From assembly GCA_934435205.1 (NCBI GenBank), contig CAKSAK010000001.1, positions 542,243 through 606,242 on the forward strand: DNA of 64,000 nt. The letters are read 5' to 3'. Position 1 is the stretch's first letter. Each line of letters opens with the position of its first letter. This stretch comes from an uncultured Ruminococcus sp. (GTDB lineage: Bacteria > Bacillota > Clostridia > Oscillospirales > Ruminococcaceae). Below the pieces are notes generated by a model that had not been told where the DNA came from, searched no databases, and worked only from the letters and a program-made list of their open reading frames with translations. The translations under genes were made by a program, and so were the position numbers. Positions 18,358 through 64,000 of the stretch are shown piece after piece.

Positions 18358-19119
18358 CTATCTGTCGTTGAATCTCTGCAGGAACTGCTTTGTTCTTTCA
18401 TTCTGGGTCTGACCGAAGACTTCCTCCGGAGTACCCTCCTCCACGATATAGCCGTCGTCCATGAAGATAACATGGTTTGCCACGTCACGGGCAAATGCCA
18501 TTTCATGGGTGACTATGACCATGGTCATTTTCTCCTTGGCAAGCTCTTTTATTACCTTTAAAATCTCCCCCGTCAGCTCTGGGTCGAGGGCGGAGGTCGG
18601 CTCGTCAAAGAAAAGTATCTGCGGTTTCAGAGCCAATGCTCTTGCAATAGATACACGCTGCTGCTGACCGCCTGAAAGCTCGCAGGGATAGGACTTGCCT
18701 TTAGTCTCAAGCCCCATTTTCTTCAAAAGCTCTTCGCAGTTGGCTTTTGCCTCGGCTTTTGGCTGTTTAAGGACATGGAGAGGAGCTTCCATTATATTCT
18801 GATTTACTGAGAAATGCGGAAAAAGGTTGAAATTCTGGAATACAAGACCGATTTTCAGGCGGATATCCCTAAGGGTCTTAGAGGGTGCATAGACTGCCTT
18901 GCCATTTTCTGTATGGAACATATTCACACCGTCAACGTTTATCTCTCCGCCGTCTGCTTTTTCAAGCTGGTTTATACAGCGCAGAAGCGTTGATTTACCG
19001 CTTCCTGACGGTCCGATTATTGCGACTACCTCGCCCACCTCAACGTTAAAAGAAATATCTTTGAGTACCTTAAGGCTGTCAAAGCTTTTGGAAATATTTT
19101 TCACTTCAAGAATAGCCAT
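18358..19119 (-). CDS. Polar amino-acid ABC transporter ATP-binding protein (GlnQ/HisP type)
   Basis: GPSGSGKST, LSGGQQQRVSIARAL, FFDEPTSALD. Confidence 0.85.
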   Translation of the reverse strand: MAILEVKNISKSFDSLKVLKDISFNVEVGEVVAIIGPSGSGKSTLLRCINQLEKADGGEINVDGVNMFHTENGKAVYAPSKTLRDIRLKIGLVFQNFNLFPHFSVNQNIMEAPLHVLKQPKAEAKANCEELLKKMGLETKGKSYPCELSGGQQQRVSIARALALKPQILFFDEPTSALDPELTGEILKVIKELAKEKMTMVIVTHEMAFARDVANHVIFMDDGYIVEEGTPEEVFGQTQNERTKQFLQRFNDR

Positions 19120-50374: not shown

Positions 50375-52132
50375 TCAAAGAGTTTTTATAACGTCCTCAG
50401 CTATCTGCTCAGGAGTAAGGTGATTTTCTTTCAGCACCTCGGCAGGGTCATAGCGGTCATAGAACTTCTTTTCAAGTCCGAAGCAAAGGGTCTTTACATG
50501 GCTGTCGCCGTAAAATCTTGCTATCTTTTCGCCAAAGCCGCCCTCAAGAACGCCGTCCTCAAGAGTGATAACTGTCTTGTGGCCAGCCTTAAGGCTTTCA
50601 AGCATTTCATTGTCAATGCCTGTGATATAGTAAGGATTTATAACAGTAGCCTTGACGCCTGTCTTTTCCTCGATAAGCTTTGCGGCTTCAACGCCAATGC
50701 CGTAGAATGAACCCAGAGCGATAACAGCAACCTGACTGCCCTTCTGTGTCATCTCATACTTGTTGAGCTTTGAAAGATCCTTTGTGAAAGGCTTGCCGTC
50801 TGAATCAAGGCTTGCAGGTACTCTTATTGCAACAGGGTGTTCGTTCTGTTCAAGGGACCAATCCAGCATTGCAAGATACTCTTCCTTTGTGACAGGTGCA
50901 AGATAAACAAGCTCAGGGATATTTGATATCATCGGTATATCGTAAATTCCAAGGTGAGTAACGTCATTCATTCCGTAAACCGAAGCCGCAAAAACAGCTA
51001 TTGTAACAGGACTTTTATTTATGCAAACGTCCTGAGAAAGCTGGTCGTAGGTACGCTGTAAGAACGAGCTGTAAACGCCGTAGAAAGGCTTTCCGCCGTT
51101 CTTTGCTATACCTGAGGCAAGTGCCATTGCGTGTTCCTCTGCAATGCCAACGTCCATAAACTGCTTGCCTGCTTTCTTTCTGATGTCAGGTGTAAAGCCG
51201 AAAACTGTCGGGGTAGCGGAGGTTATAGCACAAACGGACTTGTCAGCCTGCATTTTTTCAAGAAGATAATCGCAGGTAACAGAACCGTAATCCTCGCCCT
51301 CAGAATTGTAAAGGGACTTACCGGTTTCAGGGTCGAATGGCATATGCCAGTGCCATGTTTCCTTATCCTTTTCCGCAGGAGCATAGCCCTTGCCCTTTTG
51401 TGTTACGATGTGAACAACAACAGGCTTTTTGCTGTCCTTTACTTCCTCAAAAGCCTCAATAAGCGAAGGGATATCGTTGCCGTCCTTAACGAAAACATAG
51501 TCAAGACCCATTGCCTTGAAAAGGTTACATTCAGCCTTGCCCTCGGTATCACGGAGAAGCTTTAGATTTCTGTACATACCGCCGTGGTTTTCGGCAATAG
51601 ACATATCGTTATCGTTCACAACGATAATAAAGTTTGTATCCATTTCCCCTGCAAAGTCGATACCCTCCAGAGCTTCACCACCGCTGAGAGAACCGTCACC
51701 GATAACAGCAATAACATTGCCCTCCTCGTCCTTGAGATCTCTAGCCTTTGCAAGACCGCTTGCAAGGCTCACAGAAGTGGAAGTATGGCCAACCGTAAAA
51801 AAGTCATGCTCGCTCTCCTCTGGGTTTGTGTAGCCTGAGATATCATCGAACTTGTCAGCGTCAAGGTAGGAATCCTTTCTGCCTGTGAGCATTTTATGTG
51901 GATAGCTCTGATGTGAAACGTCAAAAACTATCTTGTCCTTGGGGGACTCAAAAACATAGTGCATTGCGATAGTGGCTTCCACCATGCCGAAGTTAGGACC
52001 AAAGTGACCGCCATGCTTGCTGAGCCTGAAAAGCAGAGCCTTTCGCATTTCCCCAGCCAGCACAGTCATTTCATCAACAGTGAGCTTTTTAACGTCCGCA
52101 GGTGAGTTTATTTTTTCAAGATACATTTTCAT
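50375..52132 (-). CDS. dxs: 1-deoxy-D-xylulose-5-phosphate synthase
   Basis: TPP-binding GGHFGPNFGMVEATIAMHYVF and DVSHQSYPHKMLTGR motifs. An alternative ATG at 52126 has better RBS spacing. Confidence 0.9.
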   Translation of the reverse strand: MKMYLEKINSPADVKKLTVDEMTVLAGEMRKALLFRLSKHGGHFGPNFGMVEATIAMHYVFESPKDKIVFDVSHQSYPHKMLTGRKDSYLDADKFDDISGYTNPEESEHDFFTVGHTSTSVSLASGLAKARDLKDEEGNVIAVIGDGSLSGGEALEGIDFAGEMDTNFIIVVNDNDMSIAENHGGMYRNLKLLRDTEGKAECNLFKAMGLDYVFVKDGNDIPSLIEAFEEVKDSKKPVVVHIVTQKGKGYAPAEKDKETWHWHMPFDPETGKSLYNSEGEDYGSVTCDYLLEKMQADKSVCAITSATPTVFGFTPDIRKKAGKQFMDVGIAEEHAMALASGIAKNGGKPFYGVYSSFLQRTYDQLSQDVCINKSPVTIAVFAASVYGMNDVTHLGIYDIPMISNIPELVYLAPVTKEEYLAMLDWSLEQNEHPVAIRVPASLDSDGKPFTKDLSKLNKYEMTQKGSQVAVIALGSFYGIGVEAAKLIEEKTGVKATVINPYYITGIDNEMLESLKAGHKTVITLEDGVLEGGFGEKIARFYGDSHVKTLCFGLEKKFYDRYDPAEVLKENHLTPEQIAEDVIKTL

Positions 52133-52360: not shown

Positions 52361-52546
52361 ATGGAATACAAAGTTATAGACATAAGTGAAGAAGATTACG
52401 GCTGCGAGGGCATACCTGAGGGCAGCGAACTCATGTGCAGCGTTTTGCTTGAAAGCTCTGACGGCACACAAAAGTGGGTGAAAATGGCTGACAGATATCT
52501 CAGAGAAAACGACATTGATATAGGCAGTGTCATCACCGCAGACTAG
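52361..52546 (+). CDS. Small acidic hypothetical protein (61 aa)
   Basis: Own promoter and RBS. Its 3' end overlaps the 3' end of the convergent 52543-53229 gene by 4 nt. Confidence 0.35.
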   Translation: MEYKVIDISEEDYGCEGIPEGSELMCSVLLESSDGTQKWVKMADRYLRENDIDIGSVITAD

Positions 52547-53229
52547 CCTGCGTCCCCCGGGATATCACGCATTATCCATGCAAGCTGTTCTTCTGTAGGC
52601 TCTTCTATCTCGTAGCCGTTGACATGATCGCCCTTGAAACATCTTTGATACAGCTCCACCCATGCAAATGTTGACAGTTTGCAATCTGCGAAGTCTTCCT
52701 TTTCACCGTTGTAAGGCAGATCTTCAGGATAACAGGTCTTGATGATAGCATTTCCATAAGGGGTACAGTCATCGAACTTACCCGAAAAAAAGCTTTCACT
52801 GCACACTCCGCTCAATGAGTATCTTGCCACAAGATATTTTTCGCCCTCTTCATAAGGGTGCTTTTTAAACGCTATCTGCGCCAGCTCGACAGTAGCTTCT
52901 GCGGCGTATATAGGACAAGGAATTAAATATCCGTTGTGAAGCTCAAAGATCTTGTCCTTGTAATGAAAAGTCTTTCGCTTTTCGATAGTGCCATATTCTG
53001 CATACTGAAAAATGTTCAGTTCAGGGTCATCGGAGTAATAGTCGGTGACATTTTCCCCTGCCTTACTGCGGAAATAGCGTTCTTTCTGTGCTTCGAGCTT
53101 GCCCCATTCCACATTTTCATCAGAGAAATAATTGCGTTCAAATTCGTCTATATCCTCCGTAAAAAATGAAGCCGTGCCGCTTGTGCATGAGGGGCAGTTT
53201 GCGTCAAATAAGGTTATTTTGTATATCAT
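52543..53229 (-). CDS. Hypothetical Cys-containing cytoplasmic protein
   Basis: GGAAAGGA RBS. 228 aa with no recognisable family motif; CPSC near the N-terminus. Confidence 0.45.
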   Translation of the reverse strand: MIYKITLFDANCPSCTSGTASFFTEDIDEFERNYFSDENVEWGKLEAQKERYFRSKAGENVTDYYSDDPELNIFQYAEYGTIEKRKTFHYKDKIFELHNGYLIPCPIYAAEATVELAQIAFKKHPYEEGEKYLVARYSLSGVCSESFFSGKFDDCTPYGNAIIKTCYPEDLPYNGEKEDFADCKLSTFAWVELYQRCFKGDHVNGYEIEEPTEEQLAWIMRDIPGDAG

Positions 53230-53338
53230 ATGAAATTCCTTTCCTAGAAGCGATAAAAATAAGCCGCAAACGTTTCTATATCATCATTATAGCATTATCC
53301 ATATCACTTTGTCAAACAAAAGAAAAGGATCAAATAGA

Positions 53339-54091
53339 TCATTCCTTCAAAGCACTGCTATCTGGCTGCAAACAGATATCGCAAATGACGACCTCCTCGC
53401 CCTCTGAACATTCTGCAATAACATTGCCCAAGGGGTCTGCGGTAATGCTTCCACCGAAAAGCTTCAGTTCTTCAAACTGACCGAACATATTCACCGAACA
53501 AAGATAAATACCGTTTTCTTTTGCGTGGGAAGTAGTCATTTCCTTGAAAAGAGCCTTGTCCTGCTCTCTCCATGCGCATGGGCAAAGCACCAGCTCTGCA
53601 CCCATTTTGGCACATTCCGACGCAGGCTCGGAGAAATTATTGTCAAAGCATATTATCACGCCCACCTTGCCGAAGTCGGTTTCCACCGTGATATAGCCGC
53701 CATCAGATGTAAAATATTTTCCTTCATCACCGAACATATGCTGTTTGCTGTAAAAATAAGCCTGTCCGTTTTTGTCGGTAAGGACTGCGCCATTGAGCAC
53801 GCCCCCGTTGTTAGCCCGTAGCATTACCCCTGCGCATATGGCAACGCCAAGCTCGCTTGACAGCTCTTTCAGCCTTGTGACAGTTTCACCGTCACGCTCC
53901 TCGCAAAGCTCTTCAAGGTGCTTTCCAAGCACAGGAAGATAATATCCACAGCCAAAAAGCTCGGGCAGACACATTATCTGCGCACCCTGCTCCGCTGCGC
54001 TTCTTATAAGCTTCTCCGCTCTGTCAAGGTTATACTCCTTGTCAAGAAGCCTTGAAGCTGTTTGTATCATTGCAAGTCTGACTTTGCTCAT
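53339..54091 (-). CDS. Carbon-nitrogen hydrolase (nitrilase-superfamily amidase)
   Basis: Glu (CLPELF), Lys and Cys (VIICFDNNF) catalytic-triad contexts. Start at MSKVRL, 8 nt after AGGAG. Confidence 0.8.
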   Translation of the reverse strand: MSKVRLAMIQTASRLLDKEYNLDRAEKLIRSAAEQGAQIMCLPELFGCGYYLPVLGKHLEELCEERDGETVTRLKELSSELGVAICAGVMLRANNGGVLNGAVLTDKNGQAYFYSKQHMFGDEGKYFTSDGGYITVETDFGKVGVIICFDNNFSEPASECAKMGAELVLCPCAWREQDKALFKEMTTSHAKENGIYLCSVNMFGQFEELKLFGGSITADPLGNVIAECSEGEEVVICDICLQPDSSALKE

Positions 54092-54124
54092 TTTTATCAC
54101 TCCTGTCGGATAGTTTTAACGCCC

Positions 54125-55351
54125 CTATAAAAACAGCTTCACTGCATTGTTGCACACAAGTTCAAAGCTTTCTATAGGCGTAAATTCAAGGGGCGAATGG
54201 CTTTTTCCGCCAATGCTTGGCATAAATATCATCGCCGTTGGTATAACATTTGCAAAAGCCTTTGCGTCATGACCTGCCCAGCTGTAAAGCTCCATTGTGT
54301 CAGGCATTTCAAGGGCTTTTATTGCCGATATCATATCCTTGTCAAATAGCTTTACCGGTGTATACGTCTCAGCTGTTATCTCGGTCTTTACGCCGTAGCT
54401 TTCTTCAAGTCTCTTCACAAAGGTTTTGAACTCCGCTGCCGTTGCTTGTGACAGGCTGTCGTCTGCTGAGCGATAATCTATCACAAGCTCAGTTTCACCC
54501 GAGATAACATTGTGTATATTCGGGCTGTTGTGAAGTCTTGCCACTGTGCAAACAAGGTCGCCGCTCTTTTTCTGACCCGTTTCCCAGACGTGAGTTATGA
54601 GTGCCGCCGCTGCCGCAAGAGAGTCCTGCCTGCCTTTCATAAACGTAGGGCCTGCGTGGTCTGAACTGCCTGTGAATTTCACGAATATCCTGCCAATGCC
54701 CACAACTCCGCAAACTATTCCAGCCTGCTTATGCTCGGTCTCAAGGACGTTTCCCTGCTCAACGTGTATCTCTAGCCAGCTTCTGTAACAGTTCTTTGCC
54801 CAGCCGCAATCACTGCCAAATGTGATATCCTTGAACAGTCTGCAATCCCCTTGCAGGTCTGCGATATTTTTGCCCTCGGCATTTCTAAATCCAAGGCATT
54901 GCTCCGCTGTCATATCCCCTGTCATAAACCTTGCGCCGAAATAGCCTTTCTGACAAATTGCGCCCTCCTCATCGGCGGTGGCGATGACTTCGATAGGATG
55001 CTTTGGCGCAATGCCGTTTTCGTGAAGCATCGATACCATTTCCAATCCGCAGACAATGCCCGCAACGCCGTCATACTTGCCTGCGTTTTTCACGCTGTCA
55101 AGGTGTGAGCCCACCGCAAAAGGCTTTTCGCCGCTGTTCAGGGGGTCGTAACGGCCGATAAGATTTCCAAAGCTGTCCATTCGGCAAGTCATTCCTGCAA
55201 GAGCAAATTCCTTTTTGAGATAGTCCACAGCGTCCGCCCAAGCGGCAGAATATGTTCGCCTTGTGATCTCGCTGTCTATCTCCGTGAATGAGCTTATCTC
55301 GTCTATCCTGCGTTGCATTCTGTTTTTATTTGATAAAAGAGCCTTTTTCAT
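54125..55351 (-). CDS. M20-family N-carbamoyl-amino-acid amidohydrolase (allantoate amidohydrolase / beta-ureidopropionase type)
   Basis: AmaB/HyuC-type architecture. Metal-binding His/Asp/Glu contexts (GSHLDSV, ADEEG). 408 aa. Confidence 0.75.
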   Translation of the reverse strand: MKKALLSNKNRMQRRIDEISSFTEIDSEITRRTYSAAWADAVDYLKKEFALAGMTCRMDSFGNLIGRYDPLNSGEKPFAVGSHLDSVKNAGKYDGVAGIVCGLEMVSMLHENGIAPKHPIEVIATADEEGAICQKGYFGARFMTGDMTAEQCLGFRNAEGKNIADLQGDCRLFKDITFGSDCGWAKNCYRSWLEIHVEQGNVLETEHKQAGIVCGVVGIGRIFVKFTGSSDHAGPTFMKGRQDSLAAAAALITHVWETGQKKSGDLVCTVARLHNSPNIHNVISGETELVIDYRSADDSLSQATAAEFKTFVKRLEESYGVKTEITAETYTPVKLFDKDMISAIKALEMPDTMELYSWAGHDAKAFANVIPTAMIFMPSIGGKSHSPLEFTPIESFELVCNNAVKLFL

Positions 55352-55371
55352 AATATTTCCTCTTTTCTAAT

Positions 55372-56721
55372 TCACTTTGTATTTGAATATTCCCAAACCT
55401 TTTCTCCGCCTGCATATAACGCCTCGACCCTGCTGTGAAGCTTTGTGTTGCCGTATATCACCCCATTGTGAGCGACTTTTGTCAGCATATTTTTCTCGTC
55501 CATAACATATGGCTGACAGTTCATATCCAGCACCGCAAGGTCGGCTTTGAAGCCCTCTTTAATAAGCCCTTTGTCCATTATGCCGAAGCGCTTGCAGGCA
55601 TTATATGAACTAAGCTCCGCCGATTTTTCTATGGTCAGCCTGCCCATTTTGACAAGCTCAAAAAGCAGCCGAAGTGACATTTCTATTCCCGGCAACCCGT
55701 CCGCCGAAGCCCATACAGAGCCATGGGGGGCTTTTTCATCAGGGGTGAAAGGTGCGTGGTCACTGCCAAGATAAAAGAAGTCGCTGTGCGCCACGATATC
55801 AAGAAGCTCGTCACGATCTTCTCGGCTTCTGAACGGTGGCTTCATTCGGGCATATCCTCCTTGACACGCCATATCTTCATCGCAGTAAAAAAGATAATGC
55901 AGAGTAGTTTCGCCGCAGATATCTACTCCACGCTGCCTTGCGGCTATAATAAGCCTTGCAGCCTTTGCGGTGCTGACGTGGGCAACATTGACCTTGCAGC
56001 CTGTTTTCTCTGCACACCTTATGGCTGTTTCCACCGCCTTTATCTCGGAGATATCAGGGTGTGAGCTGAAATATGCTCCTGCGCCGTCAGCGCCCTGTGC
56101 TTTGAGCCTTGCGGTCTCACGATTGATGATGTCATAGTCCTCACAATGGATAGTAAGTGAAAGACCGGTCTGCTTCACCGCCGCCATTATCTTTTCAAGC
56201 GCCTGCTCGTCAGGAGCGCAAAGCCCCACAAATTCACATTCTCGACCTTTCAGCGGTGGGTTCATAAAAGTCTTGAAGCCCACCGCTCCGCACTCCGCAA
56301 GCTCTGGGAGTCTATCAAGGTTATCAAAGCCTGCTCCAGCATACATTCTGAAATCTGTTATGCTGTCACGGAGCATTTCCGCCCTGCGCTTTTCAAAAGA
56401 AGCCTTATCCACCACAGGGGTCTTGCCGCCCGGCATTTCAAAGAACGTTCCCACGCCACCAGACGCCGCAGCGGTCGAGCCCGAGCGAAAGTCCTCACGA
56501 TAGGCAAATCCGCCGCCCCTGATGTGGGTGTGGGTGTCGATCATTGCAGGGATAACAAGCCGTCCTGAAAGATCTGCGCTGCGCTTTGCGTCCTCAAGCT
56601 TTGCACCATTCTCAGCGACTTGCGTTATGATACCGTCCTTTATGCCGATATCAGCGCTTCTTATGCCGTTTTTGTCGCAAAGCTTTGCATTTAAAATATT
56701 CAGGTCATTAAAAGCTTTCAT
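55372..56721 (-). CDS. Dihydropyrimidinase/hydantoinase-type cyclic amidohydrolase
   Basis: DTHTHI metal-binding HxH. Carbamylated-Lys context GFKTFM. Start ATG overlaps the preA stop (ATGA). Confidence 0.8.
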   Translation of the reverse strand: MKAFNDLNILNAKLCDKNGIRSADIGIKDGIITQVAENGAKLEDAKRSADLSGRLVIPAMIDTHTHIRGGGFAYREDFRSGSTAAASGGVGTFFEMPGGKTPVVDKASFEKRRAEMLRDSITDFRMYAGAGFDNLDRLPELAECGAVGFKTFMNPPLKGRECEFVGLCAPDEQALEKIMAAVKQTGLSLTIHCEDYDIINRETARLKAQGADGAGAYFSSHPDISEIKAVETAIRCAEKTGCKVNVAHVSTAKAARLIIAARQRGVDICGETTLHYLFYCDEDMACQGGYARMKPPFRSREDRDELLDIVAHSDFFYLGSDHAPFTPDEKAPHGSVWASADGLPGIEMSLRLLFELVKMGRLTIEKSAELSSYNACKRFGIMDKGLIKEGFKADLAVLDMNCQPYVMDEKNMLTKVAHNGVIYGNTKLHSRVEALYAGGEKVWEYSNTK

Positions 56722-57914
56722 TTTCTCACCATTCTTATTGCGCCAACAGGACATATCTGAGAGCAAAGTCCGCAGCCGTCACATTTTTCCTTGCTGCAAA
56801 AAGCTTTCTTGTCTGTGATATCTATTGCGCTGTAACCATTGTCTTCACAGCTTATCTTGCACTTACCACAGCCTATGCACTTTTCTGTGTCAATGCAAGC
56901 ACACATTTTATATGCCCTGTTGAGCTGGTTGTGCTTTACGATATTTTCAAGAGCCTTTCCGCAGAAGTCTGAAATAGTTTCATATCCCGACTTTTCCATA
57001 TACTCCACAAGCCCTTTGGACATATTTTTCACAATGCCATAACCGCTTTCCATTACTGCCGAACACACCTGCAAGGTGCTTGCACCGACGGCAATGAACT
57101 CTGCGCAATCGTGCCAATCGTATATGCCTCCCGTTGCCGATATAGGCAGACCCGTTGCCATTGAAAGCTGTGCAACGCTTCGCAAAGCTATGGGCTTTAG
57201 CGGTCGGCCGCTCAGACCTTGAAATGCGCTTTTTCCGTCAACGCTGTTGAAAGGCACCATTGTTTCAAGGTCAATGCCAGGCAGAGAGCTTATGGTGTTT
57301 ATCGCTGTCAGTGCTCTCGCTCCCCCACGTTTTGCCGCAAGACCCTTTGAAGGCAGGTCAGCGGTGAGTGCTGTAAGCTTTGGCATAACAGGCTTTGAAG
57401 TGGTGGAAGTTACCCAGCCCACCACCTTTTCTATCATAACGTCATTTGCGCCGATAGCAGCTCCGCCGCCGCTCTCAGCCTGTCCGTGAGAGCAGGATAG
57501 ATTCAGCTCAAAAGCGTCCGCACCTGCTTGATCAAATGCTTTGGTCAGCTCTTTCCACTCGCTTTCATGAAGCTCGTCAGAATGGATAAGGCTGGATATC
57601 ACCGTCTTTTCAGGAAATCTTTCTTTCAGCCAGCGTATACCCTTGACAAATTCTTCGATAGTTTTTGGGCTTCCGATCTCGAAATTCGTGAAAGCTTCTA
57701 TCTTTCCGTTTCTTTTCACCGCCCTTATCCTCGGGTTGACGTTTCGCTTTATGAACCTAGGGGAATACTGTGCGGTCTTTAAAACTGCACCGCCCCAGCC
57801 TGCTTCAAAGGCTCTTGCGATCTGATCGAAATTTGTTGTTGGCGGCGCAGAAGCAAGAATGAATGGGCTGTCCATTTCTATCCCTGCGAAATTTGTTCTG
57901 AGTGTTGCTGACAT
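56718..57914 (-). CDS. preA: PreA-type dihydropyrimidine dehydrogenase catalytic subunit (DHOD-like TIM barrel plus C-terminal 2x[4Fe-4S] ferredoxin)
   Basis: FMN-barrel motifs. C-terminal CIGCGKCKISC...CDGCGLCSQICP. ATG at 57914 is 9 nt after GGAG; the longer ORF begins with TTG. Confidence 0.75.
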   Translation of the reverse strand: MSATLRTNFAGIEMDSPFILASAPPTTNFDQIARAFEAGWGGAVLKTAQYSPRFIKRNVNPRIRAVKRNGKIEAFTNFEIGSPKTIEEFVKGIRWLKERFPEKTVISSLIHSDELHESEWKELTKAFDQAGADAFELNLSCSHGQAESGGGAAIGANDVMIEKVVGWVTSTTSKPVMPKLTALTADLPSKGLAAKRGGARALTAINTISSLPGIDLETMVPFNSVDGKSAFQGLSGRPLKPIALRSVAQLSMATGLPISATGGIYDWHDCAEFIAVGASTLQVCSAVMESGYGIVKNMSKGLVEYMEKSGYETISDFCGKALENIVKHNQLNRAYKMCACIDTEKCIGCGKCKISCEDNGYSAIDITDKKAFCSKEKCDGCGLCSQICPVGAIRMVRK

Positions 57915-57939
57915 ATATCTCAACTCCAAATACTATATC

Positions 57940-58563
57940 TTATTTTTTTGCATTGGTCTGTGTTTTGCCGAAAGCTTCTATTCGGTGGCTGATGTAATCG
58001 TCAAATTCCTGCAAGATCTCTTCGGTGGACTTTTCTCTGTCGTCCATCATAAGACCGTATACATGGGGTGCTTCAAGACCTCTGTCCGCAAGCTCTCCCA
58101 GCAGTTCTTCCATAAAAATCCCCGGCTTGTCAACAAGCACTCTGGGAACTTCTTTCGGTCTGCCGCCCCAATCCTCGCAGAAACTCGACTTTGTTATGCC
58201 GCAGCTTGGCGAGCCGTCGCAAGTGAGAATGGCGGTGACTTCATAGCCGACCTTGTAGTAATTTGCAATGTAATCTGCCGTTTGTGCTGCAAGCTGTCTG
58301 CAAAGACGGCGGTAGCCTGCGTTGTCGTAAAGATTTCGGCTTGTCCACCAGCGCTGGTTGCCCATATGCAAAACCTCTGGACAGGGCATTTGCATAACGC
58401 CGAAGCCATATTTATCAAGTATCTTCACTACATCGGAGAACATTCCGCTGTATCTTGCAAATTCAAACACCTTGTTATTGGCGTTCAGCAGGCAGTTTGA
58501 AACAAAAACGATCCTTTTACTGCGTTTGTCCTGCTTGTGCAAAGTCTTTTTAGTCTCTGCCAT
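57940..58563 (-). CDS. DUF523-like protein, a putative [4Fe-4S] protein related to the thiouracil desulfidase TudS family
   Basis: Three conserved-context Cys: VSNCLL, MPCPEV and DGSPSCG, matching my recollection of DUF523 signatures. 207 aa. Confidence 0.45.
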   Translation of the reverse strand: MAETKKTLHKQDKRSKRIVFVSNCLLNANNKVFEFARYSGMFSDVVKILDKYGFGVMQMPCPEVLHMGNQRWWTSRNLYDNAGYRRLCRQLAAQTADYIANYYKVGYEVTAILTCDGSPSCGITKSSFCEDWGGRPKEVPRVLVDKPGIFMEELLGELADRGLEAPHVYGLMMDDREKSTEEILQEFDDYISHRIEAFGKTQTNAKK

Positions 58564-58697
58564 AAATCATTCTTCTTTCCTGCTTATTTGTTATCCAGCC
58601 CCTTTTGTGAGCCGTCTATTCCCATAGGCAAGAATGGAAGAGACAGCTCGGGCTGTATATATCACGGAGGAATTTAGCTTAATAGCTTGCTATTTTT

Positions 58698-59756
58698 TTA
58701 CTTCAGACCTTCAACGGCAGCCTTCCAATAGCTGTCATCATAAACCTTTGCAGGCTTTTCCTTGATGATATCGAACTTAAGGCAAGCGTCAACAGTTGAA
58801 CCGATCTTGTCGTCGCCAAGTCTGAGCATTTTCTCTGCTTCGGTTCCGTCAGGCGCTGCAAGTGAAGCAACCTCCTTGGCGGAAGCTTTCTGATGTTCAA
58901 GTGTTGTACTGCTCTGATCTACATAGTTCCATACGATCTCGGCAGCCGCCTCAGGGTCTGTGCAGGCGTCTGACCAGCCCTTCATGGAGGCTCTCATAAA
59001 GCCTTCCATAAGCTTGTCGCTGCCGTCCTGTGCAGCCCAGTCTGTATTTGCAATGATAGCGTCCTCGAGCATTCCGCAATCATAATCTTCAAAGTTTATC
59101 ACGTTGATATCGTCCTTTGAAAGTCCCGACTCCTGCAATACGATATACTCGTTATATATATTTGCGCTGGCAACGTCGATCTCATCATTGAGAAGTGCGT
59201 CCATTGTGTAATCCTGGCTAACGATAGTGCAATCCTTATCCTTGTCGATACCGTACTTATCCAGCAACGAATAGATAGGATAATCTGCTGTGCCGACCCA
59301 AGCGCCGATCTTCTTGCCCTTCAAGTCCTCAGGTGTCTTGATACCCGATGACGCCTTTGAGCAAAGCATGAGCGAGCCCTCTTGGAACACCTGTCCTATT
59401 TCAACGATAGGATATCCCTGTTCCTCATATGGCAGCAGACCGTAGAGGTTTGCGATACCGATATCGGCAGCACCGATAGATACCTGCTGTGCAGAAACGA
59501 TATCGCTTCCGCCTGAGATGATGTTAAGATCAATGCCCTCGTCCTCATAATAGCCCTTTTCATAAGCCACATAAAAGCCCATAAACTGAACGCTCGGCAG
59601 CCACTTGAGCTGGAAATCCACTGTTGTAAGGGCCTTGCCGTTCTTTGTCACTGTGGCATTGCTTGAACCCTCGGAACTGCCACAGGAAGTAAGACCTGCT
59701 GAAAGAAGGATACCTGCTGTCAGGGCGGATAATGTTTTCATCAATACTTTTTTCAT
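58698..59756 (-). CDS. ABC transporter substrate-binding lipoprotein, NMT1/THI5-like (NitT/TauT family)
   Basis: Lipobox LTSCG. NMT1-like LKWLPSVQFMGFYVAYEKGYYEDEGIDL. Confidence 0.75.
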   Translation of the reverse strand: MKKVLMKTLSALTAGILLSAGLTSCGSSEGSSNATVTKNGKALTTVDFQLKWLPSVQFMGFYVAYEKGYYEDEGIDLNIISGGSDIVSAQQVSIGAADIGIANLYGLLPYEEQGYPIVEIGQVFQEGSLMLCSKASSGIKTPEDLKGKKIGAWVGTADYPIYSLLDKYGIDKDKDCTIVSQDYTMDALLNDEIDVASANIYNEYIVLQESGLSKDDINVINFEDYDCGMLEDAIIANTDWAAQDGSDKLMEGFMRASMKGWSDACTDPEAAAEIVWNYVDQSSTTLEHQKASAKEVASLAAPDGTEAEKMLRLGDDKIGSTVDACLKFDIIKEKPAKVYDDSYWKAAVEGLK

Positions 59757-59830
59757 AATTAACTCTCCTTATAAATTGAAAATTGGTTGTTTGCTTTTTA
59801 TTACTATCACTATAACTATCAGTTACAGCT

Positions 59831-60616
59831 TTAAGACCTTTGTGAAGCGTGCCATTTAAGAGCGACACGCTCGATTATGGAAATGATCGCATACATAAGC
59901 ACACCGCAAAGGGTAGCGACCAAGATGTATGCCCAAGCAACGGACATCTGCGAAAGCTTTATCGAAGCTGTGAGCTGATAGCCTATGCCCTTGTAGGAAG
60001 TGAAAAATTCGCTGCATATTGCAGACATAAGTCCTGTTGTTGTGCTGACCTTCAAGGCTGTGAGCATATACGGCAGACAGTTAGGAAGCTGGAGCTTGAA
60101 AAAAGTCTCGATCTTCCTTGCTGCACATATCTGCATAAGATCCTTTGAGAACGGAGGAAGCTCCGTCATACCTCTGTAAGCATTCAGCGTCATTGAAGCC
60201 ATGCTGAATACTGCAACGACCGCCACCTTTGAAGCCATTTCCATTCCGAACCAGTTGTTCATTATGGAAGCCATTGCTATCATAGGGATAGCGTTCACGG
60301 CAGTAACAATGCTTATTCCGCCCACGCCAAGCTTCGGGAACGCTGCTGCAAATACTGCGATAACAAAGCCGATAAGCGAACCAACTAATATTCCCACAAC
60401 GGCTTCTTTGAGCGTCCACACTGTGTTTGACATTATTACCGAGAAATCGTCGTTAAGTGTACGGATTATATCAGAGGGGTAGGAAAGCTGATAAGGCTTC
60501 AAGCCAAGGAGATAATGAAGTCCTCCCTGCTGCCAGGCGAAAATTATTATCACGCCCAGCACAAGCGAAAGTATCATATCCTGCGTCTTTTTCCAAAGGC
60601 GTTTAGCTTTGCTCAT
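59831..60616 (-). CDS. ABC transporter permease (NitT/TauT family)
   Basis: Six TM helices with the EAA loop. ATG at 60616 follows AGGAAGAGAGG and overlaps the upstream permease gene by 14 nt. Confidence 0.8.
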   Translation of the reverse strand: MSKAKRLWKKTQDMILSLVLGVIIIFAWQQGGLHYLLGLKPYQLSYPSDIIRTLNDDFSVIMSNTVWTLKEAVVGILVGSLIGFVIAVFAAAFPKLGVGGISIVTAVNAIPMIAMASIMNNWFGMEMASKVAVVAVFSMASMTLNAYRGMTELPPFSKDLMQICAARKIETFFKLQLPNCLPYMLTALKVSTTTGLMSAICSEFFTSYKGIGYQLTASIKLSQMSVAWAYILVATLCGVLMYAIISIIERVALKWHASQRS

Positions 60617-61436
60617 TTTCCGCACCTCTCTTCCTTTTGAATGTTTTAAGTGTTATAACTCCCGGTGTCGTGAGCTTTTCTATAAGCACCACCAACAGAT
60701 ATGTTGAAATACCCATAAGTGAAGCCATTACCACTGAAGCCCAGAAGTTTATCGCACCTGTTGCGCCATAGTAAAGCGAACTGAGTATCTTGAAACCTAT
60801 GCCCTCGCTTGAACCCATCATCTCAACCAGCACCGCTGCCGTTACTGCGCTTGGAGCGGCAAGCTTCAAGCCTGTGAAAAGATACTGTCTTGAAAATGGG
60901 AACATAAGCTTTGTGTAAACTGTTATACGCCTTGCGGCAAGTATCCTCATAAGGTCTTTCTTGTCGTTGTCAACGCTTCTCAGACCTTGATACATATTCA
61001 CTGCGACCGGAAAGAACGTTATGAACGCCGCAAGCACCGTTCTAGACATTCCCGAGTCCCTTACCACCGTGTAAACGATCGGCGCAAGAGCAAGTATAGG
61101 TATCATCTGCAAGACGATCATATAAGGAAGTATCATCTTTTCAAGAGACTTGTGAAAGCTCATAAATATAGCAATGCAAATGCCTATTACCGAACCGATC
61201 ACGAAGCCTTGGAGTGCCTTTGTGAATGTGAACATCACTGCTGAAAAAAGGCTGTCAAAGTCGGTGAATATCTTTGCTATCACCGAATGGAGATATGGCA
61301 GCTTCTTCACCGCCATAGGGTCTTTGAGCATCTTGTCAAGATAGAATGCGATAAACTCCCATAATCCCATAAGAAGTGCAAGACAGACGATGATAGAGAT
61401 AGTCTTGTTGGTTTTCTTTTCTTTCACATTTGTCAC
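60603..61436 (-). CDS. ABC transporter permease (NitT/TauT family)
   Basis: BPD-transport inner-membrane component. Start overlaps the ATPase stop (ATGA). Confidence 0.8.
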   Translation of the reverse strand: MTNVKEKKTNKTISIIVCLALLMGLWEFIAFYLDKMLKDPMAVKKLPYLHSVIAKIFTDFDSLFSAVMFTFTKALQGFVIGSVIGICIAIFMSFHKSLEKMILPYMIVLQMIPILALAPIVYTVVRDSGMSRTVLAAFITFFPVAVNMYQGLRSVDNDKKDLMRILAARRITVYTKLMFPFSRQYLFTGLKLAAPSAVTAAVLVEMMGSSEGIGFKILSSLYYGATGAINFWASVVMASLMGISTYLLVVLIEKLTTPGVITLKTFKRKRGAENEQS

Positions 61437-62200
61437 ACTCCTTCAAAACAGCCTCTGATATGCTCCACAAGTGCGTTACATTCAGGGGTATATCGCATTT
61501 CCTTTCTTCTCGGTCTCGGAAGAGTTATATCCACCATTGCGGAAAGTCTGCCTGGGTGAGGTGAGAACACTGCCACCTTATCAGAAAGATAGACAGCTTC
61601 CTGAATGTTATGTGTAATGAAAATAACTGTTTTGTGGGTCTGTCTCCAGATCTTTAAGATATCATCGTTGAGCTTCTCTCTTGTGAACTCGTCAAGAGCT
61701 GAGAAAGGCTCGTCCATTAAAAGTATAGGCGGGTCGAGCGCTAACGCTCTTGCGATACCCACACGCTGCTGCATACCGCCGCTTAGCTGATACGGATAAT
61801 GGTCGGCATAGTCGGTAAGACCCACAAGCTCAAGCACCTCGTCTGAACGCCTTTTCTGCTCCTTCTTGCTCATCTTTTGCAGCTCAAGCGGCAGGCAGAT
61901 ATTTTTTCTGACCGTCCGCCAATCGAACAATACTGCGCTCTGGAACACCATTCCGAAAGAGTGGCTGAGACGTTCCTCTCTCGGTGTGTATCCGCTTATG
62001 ATGACCTCGCCCTTTGTGGGCTGCAAAAGGTCGCAGATTATTCTGAGCATTGTGCTCTTGCCGCAGCCCGACGGACCGACCAGTGAGATAAAATCGCCTT
62101 TATCAATGTTAAAGCTGACATTTTTTAGCGCCTCGGTAGGTTCGCCCTTGGCGTTGAGATAGGTCATACTGACGTCCTTGATAAGTATTTGCGTCTTCAA
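61433..62200 (-). CDS. ABC transporter ATP-binding protein (NitT/TauT family)
   Basis: GPSGCGKST, LSGGMQQRVGIARAL, LLMDEPFSALD. Probable TTG start 9 nt after AAGGAG. Confidence 0.85.
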   Translation of the reverse strand: MKTQILIKDVSMTYLNAKGEPTEALKNVSFNIDKGDFISLVGPSGCGKSTMLRIICDLLQPTKGEVIISGYTPREERLSHSFGMVFQSAVLFDWRTVRKNICLPLELQKMSKKEQKRRSDEVLELVGLTDYADHYPYQLSGGMQQRVGIARALALDPPILLMDEPFSALDEFTREKLNDDILKIWRQTHKTVIFITHNIQEAVYLSDKVAVFSPHPGRLSAMVDITLPRPRRKEMRYTPECNALVEHIRGCFEGV

Positions 62201-62294
62201 ACAAAACAACTCCTTCTAAATAAAAAGGGCGCAGAGGAAAGCTGCTTTTCTGCATTTTCCTTCTGCGCTCCATTGCGTAGTCTCTTTTTTATGT

Positions 62295-63701
62295 TTAGCC
62301 TGCGTCGTTTACAAGCTTCATAAGCTCTGACATATCCTTCTGAGCTTCCAAATCCTCAACGAATGAGATTATCTTTTCAGTTCTCTCAGGGTCGGTGTAA
62401 ACTCTGTTTGCAAGAGTTCTGAACTTGTTCTTTACGTCCTCGAATGTAACAGGGTTTCTCCAGTCGCCCTTTGGGTCATCGATAACTGATTCATACTCAG
62501 TGCCGTCTTTCATTGTGACTTTTACTGCGCTTGAATAATGCTCAGGGTATCTTGCCTCGAATTCTGGGTCTTCAACGACCGTTGTTGAAGCAATGAGCTT
62601 CTTTACCAGCGGATCGTCAATGTACTTGACGTCAAATTCATCAACTGTTACCTTGCCGTTCACAAAGGCGATAGCTGCCTGGAATGGCATACTGAACTGG
62701 AGATCAACGATATTCTTAGGGTGCCACTTGCGTTCTTCTGCAAGCAGTCTCATTGTATATTTCGATGAACGTATCTCTATCTTTTCAATGTCCTCTGCCT
62801 TTGGGTGGTACTTTGCAACGATATCCAGACAAGCGTCAAGATGTCCGCCTGAATAACGGCAGCAAGGATATACCTTGATACTTGATGAAGCAAATTCCCA
62901 CTTGTCGCCAAGGCCCTCTGTAATAAACTTTGTGTCGAAATGATCGTAATATGAATAAGCGTGGAGAATACCGTCCTTGCCCTCATAGATATCCGACGGA
63001 CCATTGAAGCCCTTGTCGGCAAGATATGCGGCGATGATAGAGTTCATTGCTGGGTGGCCTGCCTGAAAACGCTTTGTAAAAGAACCCTCAGAGTTCCAAG
63101 CCATAAGACCTGCAACGGTGCTTCCTGCAATGCCCTGAACATAAACCGTCTTCTGCTTGTCAAAGCCCATGAGCTTTGCTGCGCTCACAGCCGCACCCAT
63201 TGAACCGCAGGTGCTTGTAGGGTGGAAGCCCTGATAGTACATATCGCCAAGATATGCACTGCCAAGTCGGCAAACAACTTCATTTCCTAAGCATACGGCC
63301 TCAATGAACTCCTTGCCGCTCTTTTTGAGCTTCTCAGCAAGTGCAAAGCTTGCAGGATATGTAGCAGGCGACGGGTGAGCGTTCGACTCATTGTGATCGT
63401 CAACGAAATCGTAACCGTAGCACTGGATAGCGTTTGCGAAAGCCGCATTCGGAGCAGAGACTTTCTTTGACGAGCCCACGATAGTACATTCAGCAGGACC
63501 CTCAAGCTCCTCAGCAGTCTCTCTTGCGATCTTGCTTGTGATGATATTTCGTGTGCCAACCATTGAAGCAAGCACGTCAAGTGTCAGCGTCTTTGCGTGA
63601 GCCACCGCATAGTCGGGCAGATCCTCGAACTTAAGTCCCGTGGAAAGCTCTGCGATAATTTCAGCGATCTTTTTCTCATTTGTTTTTGCAGTTGTAGTCA
63701 T
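62295..63701 (-). CDS. MmgE/PrpD-family protein (2-methylcitrate dehydratase / cis-aconitate decarboxylase family)
   Basis: Family-typical length and N-terminus; about 468 aa from the ATG at 63701. Confidence 0.75.
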   Translation of the reverse strand: MTTTAKTNEKKIAEIIAELSTGLKFEDLPDYAVAHAKTLTLDVLASMVGTRNIITSKIARETAEELEGPAECTIVGSSKKVSAPNAAFANAIQCYGYDFVDDHNESNAHPSPATYPASFALAEKLKKSGKEFIEAVCLGNEVVCRLGSAYLGDMYYQGFHPTSTCGSMGAAVSAAKLMGFDKQKTVYVQGIAGSTVAGLMAWNSEGSFTKRFQAGHPAMNSIIAAYLADKGFNGPSDIYEGKDGILHAYSYYDHFDTKFITEGLGDKWEFASSSIKVYPCCRYSGGHLDACLDIVAKYHPKAEDIEKIEIRSSKYTMRLLAEERKWHPKNIVDLQFSMPFQAAIAFVNGKVTVDEFDVKYIDDPLVKKLIASTTVVEDPEFEARYPEHYSSAVKVTMKDGTEYESVIDDPKGDWRNPVTFEDVKNKFRTLANRVYTDPERTEKIISFVEDLEAQKDMSELMKLVNDAG

Positions 63702-63778
63702 AATAAACAGCGTCCTTTCATTGAATTGTAGCAAATCGTATTATTGAAATGTTGATATGGTGTATTGTATATATTGTT

Positions 63779-64000
63779 CTAAGCTTTGGCTTGCAAAGCC
63801 TGTGATGAATGTTTTGACCTGAATGGTATGATATTTATTGCCGAGCCGCATATTACAAGCACCGCACCTGCGATCATATGCGGGGTAACATCTTCGTGGA
63901 GGAATATATAAGCCGCTGCCATTGCAATAACAGGCTTAATAAAGAACGATACCGAAGCCGCCGAAGGACCGCCTGCGGCGATCGCCTTGAGAAATGCGAT
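63779..64000 (-). CDS. EamA/DMT-family transporter, C-terminal fragment (gene continues past the window end)
   Basis: Minus-strand ORF ending at TAG (63779-63781). Hydrophobic C-terminal helices typical of EamA transporters. Confidence 0.5.
   Translation of the reverse strand: MAFLKAIAAGGPSAASVSFFIKPVIAMAAAYIFLHEDVTPHMIAGAVLVICGSAINIIPFRSKHSSQALQAKA

Follow-up and report, generated by a model that had tools for sequence, protein, structure and literature searches.

A gut Ruminococcus operon combining a PreA-type reductase with MmgE/PrpD-like and TudS-related proteins suggests a variant reductive pyrimidine pathway

Results

A ten-gene cluster within a longer operon

The stretch of DNA considered here (the window; 64,000 nt of contig CAKSAK010000001.1 from an uncultured Ruminococcus sp.) carries, between 53339 and 63734, ten consecutive open reading frames (ORFs), all on the minus strand of the window's ORF list, which include a PreA-type pyrimidine reductase, an MmgE/PrpD-family protein and an ABC importer. 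A previous reading made from the letters alone (the sequence-only reading) had taken them for ten tightly packed genes of a pyrimidine or hydantoin catabolic system. The ORFs proved real, and Pfam and NCBIfam agree with all ten of its family assignments and with their order, which from 3' to 5' is CN_hydrolase, M20, cyclic amidohydrolase, PreA, DUF523/TudS-related, NMT1, two BPD_transp_1 permeases, ABC ATPase and MmgE/PrpD (Table 1). The comparison of gene neighbourhoods that it had proposed finds the same set in other Oscillospiraceae, in Clostridium sp. CAG:632, in Dendrosporobacter and on many metagenome contigs, so the arrangement is not a matter of chance. The host of the operon is a gut anaerobe of the Ruminococcus/Oscillospiraceae type.

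Table 1. Features of the cluster and its flanks (window coordinates)
Feature	Position	Strand	Basis or remark
EamA/DMT transporter, 3' end	63782..64000	-	tblastn with L001 EamA: 100% identity over 73 aa; full gene 304 aa
MmgE/PrpD-family protein (PrpD-like), 468 aa, IDS-epimerase/cis-aconitate-decarboxylase branch	62295..63701	-	PF03972 + PF19305 (two domains)
ABC transporter ATPase, 244 aa	61433..62167	-	PF00005
ABC permease 1, 274 aa, GTG start 61427	60603..61427	-	PF00528
ABC permease 2, 261 aa	59831..60616	-	PF00528; 14-nt overlap with permease 1
NMT1/THI5-type lipoprotein substrate-binding protein, 352 aa	58698..59756	-	PF09084 3.5e-46; lipobox LTSC in translation
TudS-related putative [4Fe-4S] protein (TudS-like), 207 aa, CD3072 family	57940..58563	-	Putative thio-pyrimidine desulfidase
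PreA-type dihydropyrimidine dehydrogenase catalytic subunit, 398 aa	56718..57914	-	FMN barrel + C-terminal 2x[4Fe-4S] domain
Cyclic amidohydrolase, 449 aa, allantoinase/L-hydantoinase/type-I dihydroorotase group	55372..56721	-	PF01979; predicted ring-opening role
M20 hydantoinase/carbamoylase-family amidase, 408 aa	54125..55351	-	TIGR01879 277.5 bits (cutoff 204); predicted decarbamoylating role
CN-hydrolase, 250 aa, small nitrilase/aliphatic-amidase type	53339..54091	-	PF00795 1.8e-45
Promoter, sigma-70-like	53286..53315	-	Perfect TTGACA-18-TATAAT with TG; serves next gene; operon 3' boundary

Two junctions had been described as ATGA stop/start overlaps. The one at 56718-56721 is a true overlap, with the amidohydrolase ATG over the preA stop; the one at 61433-61436 reads GTGA. 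Permease 1 has its better-supported start at the GTG of 61427, with the ribosome-binding site GAAGGAG 9 nt ahead of it, so that 5 nt separate it from the ATPase gene. The 14-nt overlap of the two permease genes lies at 60603-60616, as had been seen. On identical human-gut metagenome contigs inner starts are called for several genes (PrpD-like 63701, 468 aa; ATPase 62167; PreA 57914, 398 aa; amidohydrolase 56721, 449 aa; CN-hydrolase 54091), and an exact-sequence look-up of PreA from its TTG start gave no match, whereas M20 from its ATG start did match.

The ten genes stood as described but the limit set to the operon did not, as the window end cuts it within an EamA transporter gene. In strain L173, which is 99% identical, the operon runs from the uridine phosphorylase homologue through the Crp-family regulator, EamA, PrpD-like, the four ABC genes, TudS-like, PreA, amidohydrolase and M20 to the CN-hydrolase, and the window holds the distal ten genes of a 13-gene catabolic operon. 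The regulator and the phosphorylase homologue lie further upstream, outside the window (gene order from L001 and L173), and both are within the full operon in L173, L007, L087 and L100/L101. The phosphorylase homologue scores 255 bits against TIGR01718 (cutoff 280) in this strain and 282 bits in its Dendrosporobacter orthologue. Its presence in the operon favours nucleoside-derived uracil over hydantoin, so that of the importer-linked reductive breakdown of a pyrimidine or hydantoin proposed earlier, the pyrimidine-type part holds and the hydantoin part has become less likely.

A distinct clade of PreA-type reductases

The reductase scores 420 bits against the PreA model NF006183 (cutoff 335), while models of dihydroorotate dehydrogenase (DHOD) give at most 154 bits, all far below their cutoffs. 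A biosynthetic PyrD-type identity for this barrel-plus-ferredoxin protein, which the sequence-only reading had named as one finding that would overturn it, was thus rejected. N77, N138, S140, C141, N206 and T207 align to the substrate-site motifs of pig dihydropyrimidine dehydrogenase (DPD; 1GT8), including the catalytic-loop Cys; the uracil-binding residues of the pig enzyme are all kept in the alignment, and the eight Cys of the ferredoxin domain are invariant. The closest named protein, at 99% identity, is labelled 'Ruminococcus sp.'. The protein belongs to a distinct clade, with 58-84% identity inside the clade versus 39-45% to canonical PreA, and relative to canonical PreA the clade has its own substitutions in the substrate-site motifs (I to G81, V to H111, P to S142, R to S148).

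As had been noted, no PreT is found in the window (tblastn, E<=1e-5), nor is there any in the closest relatives (type A, below). Neither the PreA protein nor an adjacent ORF holds an FAD/NAD(P)H domain, and the sole ferredoxin domain is the C-terminal Fer4_21 with its eight Cys; no Fer4_20 was found in the protein. With PreT missing, a low-potential donor such as ferredoxin presumably supplies the electrons. A ferredoxin-dependent DPD without PreT, PydAc of Clostridium chromiireducens, has been published (PMC7332683), and the uricolytic cluster of C. difficile contains a PydA homologue without the FAD domain (PMC12507026). PydAc resembles the window protein in being a DPD homologue of a strict anaerobe with no FAD/NAD(P)H module, and it draws on a low-potential donor. 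The two differ in that PydAc reportedly retains the two ferredoxin domains and thus four [4Fe-4S] clusters (PMC7332683), while the window protein has only the C-terminal eight-Cys domain (PydAc being compared by description only), and in that some relatives within the window's PreA clade (type B, below) do have PreT.

The MmgE/PrpD-like protein

With 77-85% identity to its relatives, the PrpD-like protein is the best conserved of the cluster. It scores only 37-53 bits against the PrpD equivalog models (cutoffs 458-950), and by phmmer its best matches among PDB entries are iminodisuccinate (IDS) epimerase (2HP0/2HP3, 1.6e-33) and cis-aconitate decarboxylase (CAD, about 1e-31), with PrpD itself (1SZQ) at 8.5e-6. 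A role as 2-methylcitrate dehydratase of the methylcitrate cycle was rejected on the failing equivalog scores and on finding no methylcitrate synthase in the inspected clusters. The residues aligned to His99 and Tyr145 of IDS epimerase and to His103, His159 and Lys207 of CAD, whose roles are given in PMC7347537, are kept; the position of CAD His277 appears to be Cys, as in IDS epimerase, after manual realignment of the KxxP motif. IDS epimerase and CAD are thus of the same fold family, its nearest solved relatives, and share the His/Tyr/Lys active-site residues, though the similarity is remote (phmmer E 1e-31 to 1e-33) and a context of pyrimidine catabolism has been reported for neither. We propose that the protein may be an acid-base enzyme acting on an amino-dicarboxylate product.

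The TudS-related Fe-S protein

The TudS-like protein passes the model of the TudS-related CD3072 family (NF045597, 137.7 bits, cutoff 130) and falls below the cutoff of the Pfam TudS model PF04463 (20.3 versus 34.7 bits). TudS has three Cys cluster ligands and a catalytic Glu and two Ser (PMC10611767); C24, C61-P-E63 and S118-P-S120-C121 of the window protein correspond to TudS Cys10, Cys43, Glu45, Ser101, Ser103 and Cys104. Over 35 sequences C24, C61, P62, E63, S118 and P119 are invariant and C121 nearly so; S120 is present in the window sequence and in the family consensus, outside the columns conserved at >=90%. No PDB match was found by phmmer. The AlphaFold2 model (pLDDT 83) has TudS itself (6Z96) as its best Foldseek match among PDB entries (probability 0.98, E 0.015, TM 0.41/0.53). 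The likeness to TudS (6Z96; PMC10611767) thus lies in the three Cys ligands and the catalytic Glu and Ser residues, kept by motif, and in the best, though weak, fold match, against an identity of about 19% and a place in a separate small family (CD3072-type, PF27735). The family has about 100 homologues, many of them on contigs that, going by matching lengths, apparently also hold PrpD-like or PreA-like genes, and for CD3072 we found no paper in a search of open-access papers and preprints, the scope of all our literature searches.

The idea that the TudS-like protein stands in for PreT in electron transfer was discarded, since the two occur together in type B clusters. In one contig otherwise identical to the window (L002, 6772-7412) the TudS-like gene is split into calls of 128 and 57 aa, possibly by a frameshift, as a pseudogene or through an assembly error. 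More distant PF27735 members (36-41% identity) are found in two other, nucleoside-related settings: near an inosine-uridine nucleoside hydrolase, an aminotransferase, an alpha/beta-hydrolase and an M20 amidase (L176, 144-6005), and near a 2OG-Fe(II) oxygenase, a glyoxalase-fold protein and an EamA transporter (L174, 72-3419).

The PrpD-like and TudS-like genes mark the system

Among species-representative genomes 80 PreA loci were found, three of them close to the window PreA (58-66% identity) and the other 77 canonical (39-45%). A PrpD-like gene is found at all three close loci, with 77-82% identity; the amidohydrolase is there the least conserved cluster protein (39-44%). The canonical loci have PreT in 65 of 77 cases, and homologues of the PrpD-like and TudS-like proteins, PrpF and LeuC in none of the 77. 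We then considered metagenome loci, retrieved by a scan with an alignment of the PrpD-like protein followed by a tblastn panel and restricted to loci of >=12 kb with a PrpD-like gene of >=70% identity (n=31). These hold PreA-like genes in 27 cases, the amidohydrolase in 27, M20 or a carbamoyltransferase like that of ornithine (OTC-like) in 28 and TudS-like in 26, counts that are not independent events, as many of the contigs are near-duplicates. Going by matching lengths, at least 19 contigs are apparently common to the PreA and PrpD-like match lists. The two clades occur in Oscillospiraceae and other Clostridia, Negativicutes, Synergistaceae, Thermoanaerobacteraceae, Tepidanaerobacteraceae, Deltaproteobacteria, Spirochaetales and Anaerolineae.

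The true signature of the system is therefore not the absence of PreT but a PreA clade (48-84% identity) accompanied by the PrpD-like gene in every complete locus and usually by the TudS-like gene. The sequence-only reading was right that the composition is unlike that of the described Pyd, Rut or Hyu operons, but it had looked for the difference elsewhere: it missed the PrpD-like gene as the best conserved, and the pair of PrpD-like and TudS-like genes as what defines the system. The three features on which it had relied, namely the missing PreT, the NMT1-type importer and the two unrelated amidohydrolases, are not distinctive, because a PreT-less DPD has been published (PMC7332683) and the other two are found in canonical Pyd loci. 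Homologous NMT1-type importers occur in those of Paenibacillus, Actinomycetota and Chloroflexia (ATPase 50-59%, binding protein 33-42% identical), and in several of these loci M20 and CN-hydrolase homologues are found together as well. The nearest PDB entries of the window's binding protein are 4NMY and the ThiY FAMP-binding protein 3IX1.

Types A, B and C were distinguished among the loci. Type A comprises the window, L007, L008, Dendrosporobacter L087 and L094-L101, and has the uridine phosphorylase homologue and Crp nearby, then PrpD-like, the ABC importer, usually TudS-like, PreA, amidohydrolase and M20, with no PreT; in the window and L007 a CN-hydrolase follows M20. Type B (Allofournierella L009 and about 25 metagenome loci) runs LacI, NCS1 nucleobase permease, CN-hydrolase, carbamate kinase, PrpF, PrpD-like, TudS-like, LeuC, LeuD, PreA, PreT, amidohydrolase, OTC-like carbamoyltransferase, SSF transporter and class III CoA-transferase. 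Lyases and further genes were seen in individual loci: an HMG-CoA-lyase-like (HMGL-like, citramalyl-CoA-type) protein in L009; a lyase of the isocitrate lyase (ICL)/phosphoenolpyruvate (PEP)-mutase family in L090 and L091; an enoyl-CoA hydratase and an ADP-forming acyl-CoA synthetase in L091 and L092, the latter also with TctCBA; and an aldehyde dehydrogenase gene flanking L091. The hydratase of these relatives is of LeuCD/DmdAB type, not AcnB/AcnD. Their carbamoyltransferase scores as ornithine/putrescine-type (OTC/PTC-like), the aspartate carbamoyltransferase (ATCase) model giving 134-137 bits against cutoffs of 237-263, and this fits a ureido group on a -CH2-NH- carbon with C6 unsubstituted. 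A minimal core of TudS-like, PreA, amidohydrolase, PrpD-like and M20 lies in a 4.5-Mb genome (L089, 2154-6600), preceded by a YjjI-like glycyl-radical-type protein, a radical SAM activase, an esterase and a LarA-like protein.

The presence in relatives of a PrpD-family protein, PrpF, aconitase-family subunits and an ICL/PEP-mutase-family lyase, the same families as in the 2-methylcitrate cycle, together with the aldehyde dehydrogenase beside L091, could be taken to mean thymine catabolism coupled to a methylcitrate-type cycle, in which propionyl-CoA from beta-aminoisobutyrate would pass through PrpD, PrpF, an aconitase-like hydratase and a PrpB-like lyase. We hold this to be very improbable given the PrpD scores and matches above (37-53 bits versus 458-950; 8.5e-6 versus 1e-33 for IDS epimerase), the missing methylcitrate synthase, the type of the hydratase, the lack of an aminotransferase in types A and B, and a window cluster that has the PrpD-like gene alone.

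Type C is distant, with PrpD-like proteins of 55-62% and PreA-like proteins of only 25-38% identity, the latter for that reason probably not orthologous; its extra genes include a molybdenum hydroxylase, an SsnA-like hydrolase, an isochorismatase-family amidase and an aminotransferase, and it probably serves a different heterocycle. In L163 (1390-20314; also L146, L157 and L169) PrpD-like, OTC-like, LeuCD, PrpF, a SucCD-like ligase and an HMGL-like lyase are found with a fused FAD/2Fe-2S/molybdopterin hydroxylase, an SsnA-like aminohydrolase, a double isochorismatase-family amidase, a class III aminotransferase and a divergent PreA/PreT pair, which looks like a separate, likewise undescribed N-heterocycle pathway.

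Such loci bear on whether the substrate is purine-derived or of hydantoin type, handled by a relative of the reductive uric-acid pathway (XdhD, YgfK/UacX, SsnA, HyuA, YgeW/YqeA, YgeY, YgeX), with the PreA-like protein acting as UacX does in C. difficile and the two amidases removing two ureido or amide groups. Besides the molybdenum hydroxylase and SsnA-like hydrolase of these most distant relatives, the FAD-less PydA homologue of the C. difficile uricolytic cluster (PMC12507026) and the allantoinase-like character of the amidohydrolase would fit. This is quite improbable all the same: the window cluster and types A and B have no molybdenum hydroxylase, SsnA or diaminopropionate ammonia-lyase gene, and more generally no equivalents of XdhD, SsnA, HyuA, YgeW or YgeX; the hydroxylase and SsnA-like protein appear only in type C, whose PreA-like protein is probably not orthologous; there is a single ring-opening enzyme; and the linked phosphorylase homologue is of uridine, not purine, type.

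Predicted enzymes of ring opening, decarbamoylation and amide hydrolysis

The 'dihydropyrimidinase-like' protein of the sequence-only reading does belong to the cyclic amidohydrolase family, but it is nearer to allantoinase and L-hydantoinase than to dihydropyrimidinase. All models score below cutoff (allantoinase 309 and 281 bits, dihydroorotase (DHOase) 249, ErtD 228, D-hydantoinase TIGR02033 202 against a cutoff of 393), and the nearest PDB entries are the allantoinases 3HM7 and 3E74 and the L-hydantoinase 1GKR, followed by DHOases and then dihydropyrimidinases. With the amidohydrolases of canonical Pyd loci it shares 24-30% identity, and it lies outside the D-hydantoinase/dihydropyrimidinase clade. 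A standard allantoin or purine-degradation operon, which the earlier reading had asked to be checked, was rejected, as no such synteny was found around the cluster. For the M20 enzyme the nearest PDB entry is N-carbamoyl-L-amino-acid hydrolase (3N5F, 2.8e-54), with beta-alanine synthase 1R3N also among the matches. The CN-hydrolase is nearest to the small archaeal nitrilases (Pyrococcus PH0642/nitrilase) and to the Nesterenkonia amidase, an aliphatic amidase; homologues of 40-47% identity are found next to an M20 or OTC-like enzyme both in type B relatives and in the type A relative that is closest to the window. It probably carries out a separate amide hydrolysis step rather than acting as a second decarbamoylase.

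An amidohydrolase nearer to allantoinase and DHOase than to dihydropyrimidinase would also suit the fermentation of orotate (or of dihydroorotate or carboxymethylhydantoin), in which the PreA-like protein would be an orotate reductase, the amidohydrolase would open dihydroorotate, M20 would yield aspartate and the PrpD-like protein would epimerise N-carbamoyl-aspartate or dihydroorotate. Consistent with this are the pair of bases proposed for IDS epimerase and kept in the PrpD-like protein (IDS being an N-substituted aspartate) and the carboxylate-type transporters (SSF, TctC) of relatives. It is nonetheless rather improbable. The reductase scores as PreA (420 bits) and not as DHOD (<=154 bits, all below cutoff), and the relatives' carbamoyltransferase is OTC/PTC-like and not ATCase-like (134-137 bits against 237-263), so that clostridial orotate fermentation is matched in neither enzyme; aspartate is no substrate for PrpF, LeuCD or a citramalyl-CoA-type lyase, and the uridine phosphorylase homologue would not be needed.

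Proposed pathway

We give about an even chance to the reading that the operon breaks down a uridine-derived, uracil-type base with a carboxylated side chain by a variant of the reductive pyrimidine pathway, the PrpD-like and TudS-like enzymes suggesting that the real substrate is a carboxylated, possibly thiolated, modified uracil. Going by homology, the uridine phosphorylase homologue outside the window would release the base, the NMT1-type ABC system would take up the nucleoside or base, the PreA-type flavo-iron-sulfur enzyme would reduce its C5=C6 bond, the allantoinase/L-hydantoinase-like amidohydrolase would open the ring, and the M20 carbamoylase would yield CO2, NH3 and an amino acid. 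The remaining steps are drawn from the conserved neighbourhoods. A base with a carboxylated side chain, best fitted by a 5-carboxymethyl-type uracil, would give on decarbamoylation an amino-dicarboxylate such as 2-(aminomethyl)succinate, from which the PrpD-like protein would remove the remaining nitrogen, or which it would otherwise rearrange, to form an itaconate-type unsaturated branched dicarboxylate; beta-elimination of ammonia from 2-(aminomethyl)succinate would give itaconate. The PrpD-like protein is the only candidate for the ammonia-elimination step in types A and B. The TudS-related Fe-S protein might strip sulfur from thiolated forms, and the CN-hydrolase might hydrolyse a side-chain amide.

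The lower half of the scheme comes from the relatives. It is established, for example from nicotinate fermentation and citramalate metabolism, that exo-methylene double bonds are moved by isomerases of the PrpF type and that substituted maleates are hydrated by enzymes of the LeuCD/DmdAB type. Citramalate-type acids are cleaved either by an ICL-family lyase or by an HMGL-like lyase working with a class III CoA-transferase. Since genes for such a lower pathway are interleaved with the core genes in the relatives, the core carbon product should be an itaconate-, citraconate- or mesaconate-type dicarboxylate, which PrpF, the LeuCD-type hydratase and a citramalyl-CoA-type or isocitrate-lyase-type lyase would there convert to pyruvate and acetyl-CoA or acetate. 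The window organism, whose cluster has no PrpF, LeuCD or lyase genes, may instead export the acid through EamA.

A more specific and unlikely, somewhat speculative, form of the proposal is that the operon is an undescribed anaerobic route for eukaryote-type wobble uridines of the 5-carboxymethyl series (cm5U, ncm5U, mcm5s2U), with the uridine phosphorylase homologue releasing the base, the TudS-like protein removing the 2-thio group, the CN-hydrolase converting carbamoylmethyl to carboxymethyl, PreA, amidohydrolase and M20 taking the ring down to 2-(aminomethyl)succinate, and the PrpD-like protein being a new C-N lyase that makes itaconate. Type A organisms would export the itaconate, whereas those of type B would ferment it to pyruvate and acetyl-CoA by way of citraconate and citramalate.

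Several points weigh against the carboxylated-uracil reading. Its substrate is deduced from the logic of gene neighbourhoods alone, and uracils of the 5-carboxymethyl type, known mostly from tRNA wobble modifications of low abundance, agree poorly with a pathway that in relatives is coupled to carbamate kinase. No paper on the catabolism of 5-carboxymethyluracil-type bases or of aminomethylsuccinate was found in our literature search, nor did a search on PydA and itaconate find one that describes the pathway. The itaconate-type endpoint is borrowed from relatives of 58-77% identity, because the window cluster lacks PrpF, LeuCD and the lyase. An epimerase or decarboxylase role for the PrpD-like protein would be equally compatible with its conserved residues, and we know of no C-N lyase activity described in the MmgE/PrpD family. 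The modelled fold match of the TudS-like protein to 6Z96 is weak (E 0.015, TM 0.41/0.53), and plain uracil, thymine and thiouracil are possible substrates.

The last of these points corresponds to an explanation that we judge unlikely but worth serious consideration, namely ordinary reductive catabolism of uracil and thymine combined with detoxification of 2- or 4-thiouracil, with a ferredoxin-dependent PreA and with the PrpD-like protein and the CN-hydrolase accessory or unrelated. It draws on a PreA that passes the equivalog cutoff and keeps all uracil-binding residues, on the uridine phosphorylase homologue in the operon, on the TudS catalytic motifs, on the homologous importer of canonical Pyd loci and on the precedent of ferredoxin-dependent PydAc (PMC7332683). 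It would leave the PrpD-like gene, the most conserved of all, present in every complete locus of the PreA clade and in 0 of 77 canonical loci, without a part; nor does it sit well with the clade substitutions in the PreA substrate-site motifs or a ring-opening enzyme outside the dihydropyrimidinase clade, and beta-alanine and beta-aminoisobutyrate are no substrate for the PrpF, LeuCD and lyase interleaved in the relatives.

Comparison with known pathways

The system works like the reductive pyrimidine pathway, with two conserved added proteins, and we found no published description of it. It shares with the Pyd/PreTA pathway the order of C5=C6 reduction, ring hydrolysis and decarbamoylation, the DPD substrate-site motifs and an M20 carbamoylase-family enzyme, as well as, in some canonical loci, a homologue of the NMT1-type importer. 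It differs in that type A has no PreT, in a ring opener of the allantoinase/L-hydantoinase group, in a PreA clade only 39-45% identical to the canonical one, and in PrpD-like and TudS-like partners that are absent from 77 canonical loci. As predicted from its proteins, the cluster fails two defining features of Pyd, PreT (in this organism) and a ring opener of the dihydropyrimidinase clade. From the Hyu operon it is set apart by the presence of the PreA ring reductase and by having none of its ten proteins in the racemase family.

For the lower half, the nearest parallel is nicotinate fermentation in Eubacterium barkeri, which proceeds through methylitaconate isomerase (Mii), dimethylmaleate hydratase (DmdAB) and dimethylmalate lyase (Dml). 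The cluster relatives carry a PrpF-type isomerase, a LeuCD/DmdAB-type hydratase and an ICL/PEP-mutase-type lyase, and the logic is alike: reduction of an N-heterocycle, hydrolytic opening and processing of an exo-methylene dicarboxylate. Unlike that pathway, the one proposed here would act on a diazine with a ureido group, removed by M20 or the OTC-like enzyme; B12 mutase and enamidase are both missing, and the window organism lacks the lower half.

The gene set is widely distributed in gut and environmental anaerobes, and it locks an MmgE/PrpD clade and the CD3072-type TudS relatives, both without an assigned reaction, to reductive pyrimidine-ring breakdown. The MmgE/PrpD fold also includes the immunometabolic enzyme ACOD1/IRG1. 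A solution of the pathway would give a new reaction of this fold, the natural substrate of a gut nucleobase-type pathway and possibly a bacterial source or sink of itaconate-type acids.

Neighbouring genes

Scans for promoters and terminators gave counts near those of shuffled sequence, and their only useful result was the perfect promoter just past the last cluster gene (Table 1). Behind it lies a gene for a 228-aa protein (52543-53229, minus strand) that matches no Pfam family on record. As an eleventh cluster member it was rejected, having its own promoter and being absent in L173 and L007. It is present in L001-L004 and missing from the same position in L173, that is, a strain-variable insertion between the operon and a DXP-synthase/transketolase-like gene (585 aa, 50375-52132, minus strand). 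The latter stands directly downstream of the operon in all strains of the species and has no counterpart at that place in L007 and other relatives. Between 52000 and 64000 Rfam found no RNA family, riboswitches included. Among the tblastn side matches in the window were two further ABC ATPase homologues, at 18469-19071 and 1119-1739, which are 40% and 32% identical to the cluster ATPase.

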